DNA of 5,652 bases from Escherichia coli (GTDB lineage: Bacteria; Pseudomonadota; Gammaproteobacteria; Enterobacterales; Enterobacteriaceae): the NCBI RefSeq assembly GCF_003334315.1, contig NZ_QOWR01000093.1, one strand, 5' to 3'. The notes below the pieces were generated by a model that saw only the letters and a program-made list of their open reading frames with translations, did not search any database and was not told where the DNA came from. This document shows positions 395-904 of the stretch, in pieces. Both the position numbers and the translations under genes were made by a program. Within the stretch, counting starts at the first letter, position 1, and the number at the start of each line of letters is the position of its first letter.

Positions 395-871
395 TCAGCT
401 GTAGGTATAGGTGATGCTAATCACTGCCTGAATGGTTCCCTGAGTGGCTCCGCCATTTACCGTCAATGCTCTGACCTGTAACGGGAAGTGCGCTGATTGT
501 GAGGAATCATCCACCTGAACTGTTTTGGTTGCGCCAGTATTCAATGTGTTGCCACTGTCATCCTGTAGCTCTAACTGGATGTTTTGCGCGGTCCCCTGGT
601 TTTTATAATATCCGGTACTGTCGGCTGCCCCGCTGAAGCTGGCGGTGACCCTCGACGTTCCCACCGGACAATTAGTCAACTCAAGCGCAACATCATGCCA
701 GGCCGATGCCGCCCCGGCAGACATCAGACTGAAAGAATAAAGATCGCCGAGATCAACCGTGGCATTGGTGGTGGAAACCGTACACGGTTTGGCGACGACC
801 TTACCGTTCACCGTGATGGTGACATCGGCTGCCTGTATCGTCGCACTTGCGAGCGCCAATATTGCCGCCAA
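395..871 (-). CDS. fimG: fimG (minor tip-fibrillum subunit). The canonical gene extent is 395..898, but an in-frame TAG sits at codon 3 (890..892); the open frame downstream of that stop starts at TTG 871
   Basis: Translation matches FimG (..AAILALASATIQAADVTITVNGKVVAKPCTV...ISITYTYS). Upstream in the same frame: GGAG (905..908), 6-nt spacer, ATG (898..896), AAA, TAG (892..890), then CGC AAA CGT GGG TAT TTA TTG. Span 395..898 is 168 codons, the recalled FimG length (167 aa). This may be annotated as a pseudogene or with an alternative start. Confidence 0.8.
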   Translation of the reverse strand: MAAILALASATIQAADVTITVNGKVVAKPCTVSTTNATVDLGDLYSFSLMSAGAASAWHDVALELTNCPVGTSRVTASFSGAADSTGYYKNQGTAQNIQLELQDDSGNTLNTGATKTVQVDDSSQSAHFPLQVRALTVNGGATQGTIQAVISITYTYS

Positions 872-904
872 TAAATACCCACGTTTGCGCTATTTCATGA
901 GCAT

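Follow-up and report, generated by a model that had tools for sequence, protein, structure and literature searches.

An amber codon at position 3 of fimG in an Escherichia coli type 1 fimbrial operon interrupted by insertion sequences

Gene content and organization of the locus

The window considered here, the whole stretch of 5,652 bp of DNA that was analyzed, corresponds to the E. coli type 1 fimbrial operon, encoded on the minus strand, as established from the listing of its open reading frames, NCBIfam equivalogs and collinearity with annotated genomes. The reading frames succeed one another in the order fimI-fimC-fimD-fimF-fimG-fimH' (Table 1), fimG being located between fimF and fimH as in the fimAICDFGH operon of annotated genomes. 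The exact FimD protein is widespread in E. coli genomes, with more than 1,700 blocks of the searched collection containing it. Extended mechanically to the GTG at 5563, the reading frame of fimI covers 4916-5563 (215 aa) and runs into the 3' remnant of fimA. Translation from the canonical ATG at 5455 gives a FimI of 179 aa that matches NF052361 over its full length. Scans of the 5,652 bp for tRNA genes and Rfam families revealed neither a tRNA gene nor an Rfam element or structured RNA. As a whole, the window resembles one complete short-read contig with repeats at either end. Related loci from public collections are designated below by L-numbers where they have to be distinguished.

Table 1. 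Features of the 5,652-bp window and their coordinates
Feature	Coordinates	Strand	Description
IS1 left end (terminal repeat and insA start) in fimH	1..204	-	Boundary +/- 1 nt
fimH 5' fragment	205..375	-	Codons 1 to ~57, up to the IS1 junction
fimG	395..898	-	167 codons, ATG 898 to TGA 397..395; broken at codon 3; mature part (ADVTITV...) intact
TTG codon 14 of fimG	859..857	-	Second candidate restart
TTG codon 10 of fimG	869..871	-	Candidate re-initiation codon; start in the automatic annotation of the 158-aa product
Amber TAG, fimG codon 3	890..892	-	Derived from TGG (Trp3) by G>A at window position 891
GGAG Shine-Dalgarno of fimG	905..908	-	6 nt 5' of ATG 898
fimF	911..1441	-	Intact, 176 aa; NCBIfam FimF, 288 bits; concordant annotation at homologous loci
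fimD (usher)	1451..4087	-	Intact, 878 aa; from the ORF listing
fimC (chaperone)	4154..4879	-	Intact, 241 aa; from the ORF listing
fimI	4916..5455	-	Intact, 179 aa from ATG 5455; NCBIfam FimI, 333 bits
fimA 3' remnant	5520..5578	-	Last ~19 codons and TAA 5522..5520; aligned to the end of the intact fimA of L004
IS186/IS421-like (IS4-family) element in fimA	5579..5652	.	Terminal 74 bp; collinear with L003 and L022

Insertion sequences in fimA and fimH

The operon carries two independent disabling lesions: fimH is interrupted near codon 58 by an IS1, and fimA near codon 164 (of 182) by an IS186/IS421-like element. Positions 1-204 match, with 99.5% identity over 205 nt, the IS1 of locus L010, whose genes carry InsA/IS1 Pfam domains, and the N-terminus of insA is directly readable in the window. 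NCBIfam gave no match for the InsA fragment of IS1 or for the FimH fragment, both being too short, and DNA identity was used instead. The IS1 joins fimH after ...CAA AAC CTG GTC GTG (junction 204/205), within the region encoding the lectin domain and about 690 bp downstream of the fimG amber codon described below. The predicted product of the interrupted gene is a FimH-IS1 fusion of 65 aa, which GenBank lists as hypothetical protein OWD49590.1. At least five other public contigs, all with an intact fimG, share this junction.

At the opposite end, positions 5579-5652 read ...CCCTTAAGTTAGCGCTTATG; next comes what remains of fimA, its ~19 final codons (5578-5520), which align in L004 from locus position 4510 of a fimA coding sequence spanning 4020..4568. 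The same arrangement is found in L022 (strain L73), in which fimA is called with 170 aa instead of 182 and its neighbor bears the annotation "IS4-like element IS421 family transposase". This fimA insertion is also found in L003 and L017. The pilus rod cannot be built from FimA lacking the C-terminal strand, and FimH is needed for the start of assembly at the FimD usher. With the C-terminal strand of FimA lost and FimH cut, we infer from this established knowledge of the two proteins that the operon makes no pili, functional type 1 pili being out of its reach whatever the state of fimG.

The amber codon of fimG and its comparison with other alleles

On the minus strand, the stop codon of fimF (TAA, 913..911) is followed by CT, by the GGAG motif (908..905) and by ATGCTC (904..899), after which fimG begins with ATG (898..896), AAA (895..893) and TAG (892..890). 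Beyond this amber codon, CGC AAA CGT GGG TAT TTA (889..872) leads to a TTG (871..869), from which the frame remains open over 158 aa to the TGA at 397..395. No uninterrupted frame thus links the canonical ATG to the charged n-region of the signal peptide, the TAG separating Arg4, Lys5 and Arg6 from ATG 898. A preliminary description of this DNA, made from the sequence alone, had reported an amber at codon 3 of fimG with a preserved start and ribosome-binding site, followed by an intact frame; direct reading of the minus strand agrees with it on each of these points, coordinates included, the canonical gene having 167 codons. The 158-aa product starting at TTG matches the NCBIfam FimG equivalog NF052363.1 with 279.2 bits (cutoff 220) over profile positions 11-166 of 166, and since the match begins at position 11, only about the first ten residues of FimG are missing. 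In sequence comparison, the FimG product is identical to FimG chains of the PDB, and chain G of entry 3JWN confirms ADVTITV as the N-terminus of mature FimG.

In K-12 MC4100, fimG starts with ATG AAA TGG TGC AAA CGT GGG TAT GTA TTG, which is the MKWCKRGY start (TGG TGC) that the preliminary description had correctly given for K-12. The nearest alleles, those of strains E2865 and 2012C-4606, start with ATG AAA TGG CGC AAA CGT GGG TAT TTA TTG and differ from the window over 221 bp by the sole G>A at position 891. A position-by-position comparison with ten further loci identified this same substitution (TGG>TAG) as the one difference common to all, and nothing else separates the window from L001, L002 and L019 in the region of the fimG start. 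The codons CGC (Arg4) and TTA (Leu9) are common natural polymorphisms. Considering these ordinary polymorphisms together with the single difference from the nearest alleles, the lesion consists of one transition and not of two changes; the two base changes first proposed hold against K-12, but not against the closest alleles, where a single G>A is found. Every other related locus covering the site with codon 3 open has TGG there, TGG being counted in 14 related loci, and this comparison indicates that TAG is a derived state of TGG.

Occurrence of the amber allele

Public sequences were looked up with the exact products of gene callers, namely the 158-aa and 154-aa FimG starting at TTG and the 65-aa FimH-IS1 fusion. 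The 158-aa FimG (GenBank OWD49591.1/WP_065222174.1) and the 65-aa fusion (OWD49590.1) were found to be encoded by neighboring genes of one E. coli draft genome. The TAG is present in assembly GCA_002190225.1 (LYBE01000574.1; L013), which is 100% identical to the window over 5,441 bp, and in the Logan assembly of run SRR1122540 (L018), 100% identical over 5,429 bp; the latter contig occurs in four samples, which are not necessarily independent isolates. The amber lineage also has two further private substitutions, at positions 4610 and 160. The former, CTG>CTA at Leu90 of fimC, is synonymous and lineage-specific. The latter lies in IS1, upstream of insA, where the window has T (TTTTTTAGG) and the same-junction IS1 of L017, L020 and L021 has G. 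The identity of the base in separate assemblies, associated with these private substitutions, makes a random read error very unlikely and argues for the TAG being a genuine heritable mutation. The sequencing error envisaged in the preliminary description thus finds little room, two public assemblies carrying the TAG in full identity with the window.

The allele is rare. A 59-nt probe centered on the TAG matched 4,523 of the 5,426 complete E. coli genomes, and the TAG was found in none of these 4,523, the best matches having one mismatch and none reaching at least 99% identity. An exact-pattern scan likewise returned no match for the allele in the GTDB species representatives and none in the JGI metagenomes. 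No relevant literature on fimG stop codons was found.

Order of events

Four loci (L016, L017, L019 and L020) share the identical fimH::IS1 junction and the same 65-aa fusion, with TGG in fimG, and show 1-4 differences from the window over the 1.0-5.5 kb that each of them shares with it. The carriers of the TAG on this haplotype, i.e. the window, L013 and L018, are mutually identical and all include the fimH::IS1 junction. Since the sister loci with this junction have TGG and all three TAG carriers of the haplotype have the junction, the TAG is nested inside the fimH::IS1 haplotype, and the amber codon arose after fimH was broken. The position of the fimA insertion in this series is less straightforward: L016 combines fimH::IS1 with an intact fimA, whereas L003 and L022 combine fimA::IS421 with an intact fimH. 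A linear succession of fimA::IS, fimH::IS1 and TAG was rejected on account of these conflicting combinations. IS186 has a known target preference, and the mixed pattern of the fimA insertion is tentatively attributed either to this preference or to recombination.

Potential for FimG production downstream of the amber codon

The first in-frame NTG codons past the stop are the TTG codons 10 and 14, at 871 and 859. The duplex energies of their upstream regions with the anti-Shine-Dalgarno sequence were compared with those of all NTG triplets in the window. The canonical ATG 898 reaches -6.4 kcal/mol and ranks in the top 7% of these triplets. TTG-10 scored -3.9 kcal/mol and TTG-14 scored -4.8 kcal/mol, with respectively 28% and 19% of the NTG triplets of the window being as good or better; no Shine-Dalgarno complementarity above this background was found before either codon. 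Such ordinary energies indicate that neither TTG is preceded by a dedicated ribosome-binding site. Re-initiation at TTG 871, put forward in the preliminary description as a route to expression, is thus possible in principle but is not accompanied by any distinctive Shine-Dalgarno complementarity.

TTG-10 is in frame and located 19 nt downstream of the TAG. Its product would begin with fMet-AAILALASATIQA, directly followed, after the cleavage site, by ADV. Given the mature N-terminus seen in 3JWN chain G, the hydrophobic core and the cleavage site would be kept, while all four positive charges of the n-region are lost, leaving a signal peptide of 14 residues with no charged residue, in line with the loss of the charged N-region initially anticipated for the restart product. 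An uncharged signal peptide of 14 residues should export poorly, and a meaningful export of restarted FimG is unlikely. In any case, the question of fimG expression is largely moot at this locus, fimH and fimA both being cut, and an occasional restart at TTG 871 would have no phenotype in this operon background.

Early fimG stops in other lineages

Two other loci with an early stop in fimG were found, both through the look-up of the 154-aa product. The first, L031 (positions 5962-6465; SRR31612894), has the same TAG at codon 3 but belongs to a clearly distinct fim haplotype, with 66 differences from the window in 5,371 bp; its fimA, fimI, fimC, fimD, fimF and fimH are all full length. The nearest differences flanking the TAG are 109 and 112 bp away from it, and this amber probably has an independent origin. 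Short-tract recombination was considered as its source; the shared stretch, of at most 220 bp, is invariant in all haplotypes, so that sequence comparison cannot distinguish recombination from recurrent mutation in this case. The second, L024 (positions 5962-6465 of a metagenome scaffold, ENA ERZ28588770), represents a third lineage and has a TGA at fimG codon 9 (TTA>TGA), directly before TTG-10, the rest of fimA-H being intact. This codon-9 TGA allele was found in at least one place among the matches listed, and it is absent at full length from the complete E. coli genomes. The look-up used here selects alleles with a closed upstream frame, and the finding of L031 and L024 is therefore a selection effect and not an enrichment. 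Early fimG stops nevertheless recur in operons that are not dead, and the amber of L031, lying in an otherwise intact operon, shows that such a stop does not depend on prior inactivation of the operon; it could be leaky, or simply tolerated.

Interpretation and alternative explanations

The locus is very probably explained by a genuine and lineage-specific mutation of Trp3 into an amber codon, by one G>A, in the fimG gene of an operon already inactivated by insertion sequences, fimG being a predicted pseudogene. The IS186/IS421-like element has deprived fimA, the major pilin gene, of its last ~19 codons and separates fimI-H from the fimS promoter, and the adhesin gene fimH has been cut near codon 58 by the IS1. 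Once the operon was no longer under selection, the amber codon could then have been fixed as a secondary lesion, presumably selectively neutral, making fimG a pseudogene, and ribosomes ending at the TAG might occasionally restart at TTG 871. Among the possibilities offered in the preliminary description, that of a fimG pseudogene best fits a premature derived stop accompanied by two IS lesions. This part of the earlier interpretation is retained, unlike the sequencing error and the two changes (true only relative to K-12), and the flanking IS context had been overlooked. The case is one of ordinary gene decay, a new instance of a well-known type of event, and its biological weight is small: it would represent another E. 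coli lineage losing type 1 fimbriae through IS insertions and then point mutations.

An alternative is that the allele is leaky, with re-initiation at TTG-10 or TTG-14 yielding a full-length mature FimG behind a signal peptide without its K/R-rich n-region, in which case fimG would be down-tuned and not null. The proximity of an in-frame TTG-10, the core and cleavage site kept in its product, and the occurrence of W3amber in L031 and of L9opal in L024, both upstream of TTG-10 in operons otherwise intact, are compatible with this possibility, for which lacI provides a precedent: when an amber codon lies early in that gene, restarting at UUG or GUG is established. It is nonetheless unlikely, considering the ordinary anti-Shine-Dalgarno energies before both TTG codons, the poor export expected from an uncharged signal peptide, the selection effect underlying the L031 and L024 finds, and the broken fimH and fimA of the window, which leave no pilus for FimG to join. 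An even less probable extension would hold the n-region stops (W3amber here and in L031, L9opal in L024) as tolerated leaky alleles, restarting at TTG-10 with a low amount of FimG and selected for this reduction. Mutants lacking fimG are reportedly still piliated, with longer pili and with binding retained. If this extension were true, the stoichiometry of the tip fibrillum or the pilus length would be altered, and the recurrence of such stops would reflect selection and not decay.

A true G at position 891, misread or misassembled, is hardly credible: the difference does concern a single base in a draft-type contig with repeats at its ends, but the same base is found in an NCBI assembly and in the Logan assembly of another run (a contig retrieved in four samples), its context AAATAGCG is neither a homopolymer nor a repeat, and the private substitutions at 4610 and 160 are those expected of a real clone. 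The restoration of the FimG precursor by a suppressor tRNA of the host (e.g. glnV44/supE-like), inserting Gln or another residue at position 3, is similarly very improbable. A substitution at this position, in the n-region of the signal peptide, would be harmless, but suppressor tRNA alleles are laboratory rarities among natural isolates, no tRNA gene lies within the window, the allele is not conserved (0 of the 4,523 complete genomes), and the operon is broken elsewhere anyway. Suppressor tRNAs have also been raised by Bravo et al. as a possible route for reverting the fimB amber codon of Shigella (PMC4374849). As for a programmed recoding, in which a conserved TAG would direct read-through or the insertion of a non-standard amino acid, its likelihood is close to nil: every close relative has TGG, as do all the complete genomes matched, and the Rfam scan revealed no structured RNA in the window. 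We also know of no pyrrolysine machinery in E. coli. This candidate was considered already refuted by the absence of conservation of the stop, in the complete genomes as well as in the GTDB representatives and JGI metagenomes.

Annotation of fimG in public databases

The sequence of the amber allele is already public, annotated as an ordinary, shorter FimG. By the preliminary description, reference alleles having the same codon 3 and annotated from a start further downstream would count against its reading; such a start literally exists (OWD49591.1/WP_065222174.1, 158 aa), but it results from automatic gene calling and does not constitute evidence of expression. The annotation of the intact gene is itself variable. 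RefSeq/PGAP represents intact fimG by a 147-aa protein, WP_077897989.1, whose coding sequence starts at an ATA corresponding to codon 21 of the real gene and which has no signal peptide, often under the sole name of "fimbrial protein"; this annotation was seen in L001 (1663-2106), L002, L022 and L023 (K-12 MC4100, 7572-8015). In the PDB entries 6E14 and 6E15, the FimG deposited as chain G is the 158-aa form starting at TTG (MAAILALAS...), identical to the product called on the amber allele, which indicates that the downstream-start form circulates as an annotation variant of the intact gene. The practical value of the case lies in annotation. Automatic pipelines hide the pseudogene, since they start the TAG-bearing gene at a downstream TTG and name the resulting protein, of 158 or 154 aa, as if it were an ordinary "type 1 fimbria minor subunit FimG". 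Scoring the integrity of fim operons from protein calls is misleading both ways, an amber fimG looking normal and an intact fimG appearing without signal peptide.

Comparison with known systems

The fimG of the window occupies the same gene position as that of K-12 and uropathogenic strains (a precursor of 167 aa and a mature adaptor of 144 aa; PDB 3JWN, 4J3O and 6E14), has the same ribosome-binding site, and encodes a mature protein identical over 144 aligned residues. It differs from the K-12 gene by the stop at codon 3 and by Arg and Leu at residues 4 and 9, a common non-K-12 allele, in place of Cys and Val. The situation recalls the restart proteins of lacI, with in-frame UUG codons that could serve for a restart coming a few codons after an early amber. 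Unlike the lacI case, fimG has no distinctive Shine-Dalgarno sequence for a restart, and its restart product would have to be exported with a signal peptide lacking the charged n-region.

A different type of early truncation was observed in L011 (7773-8477) and L014, where the right end of an IS1 abuts fimG codon 9 (...CATTACC joined to GTATTG), beside fec genes, fimB through fimF being deleted. This resembles the arrangement of EIEC 53638, in which only fimG-fimH is kept, and it gives the same predicted 158-aa FimG from TTG-10 (P0018) as the amber allele. In contrast with this truncation by IS1, the 5' end of fimG and its ribosome-binding site are kept in the window and a point mutation creates the stop.

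A close counterpart is documented in Shigella and EIEC: in every group, combinations of IS1 insertions and TAG nonsense mutations have inactivated the fim cluster (Bravo et al. 2015, PMC4374849). The lesions reported there comprise fimD::IS1 at codon 221, fimI::IS1 at codon 35, an amber at fimB codon 162, an amber at fimD codon 563 and fimH::IS629 at codon 264. As in the window, the same operon is affected by IS1 in structural genes and by amber codons, CAG>TAG or other, and the outcome was read as a loss of type 1 fimbriae. The IS1 in fimH raised the possibility of a Shigella origin, which was rejected because the deposits of the exact products (OWD49590.1 and OWD49591.1) are E. coli and the catalogued lesions are others. 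Unlike Shigella and EIEC, the public assemblies matching the window are labelled E. coli, and none of the reported lesions coincides with those found here, namely fimA::IS186/IS421, fimG W3amber and fimH::IS1 at about codon 58, in an operon whose fimI, fimC and fimD are intact.
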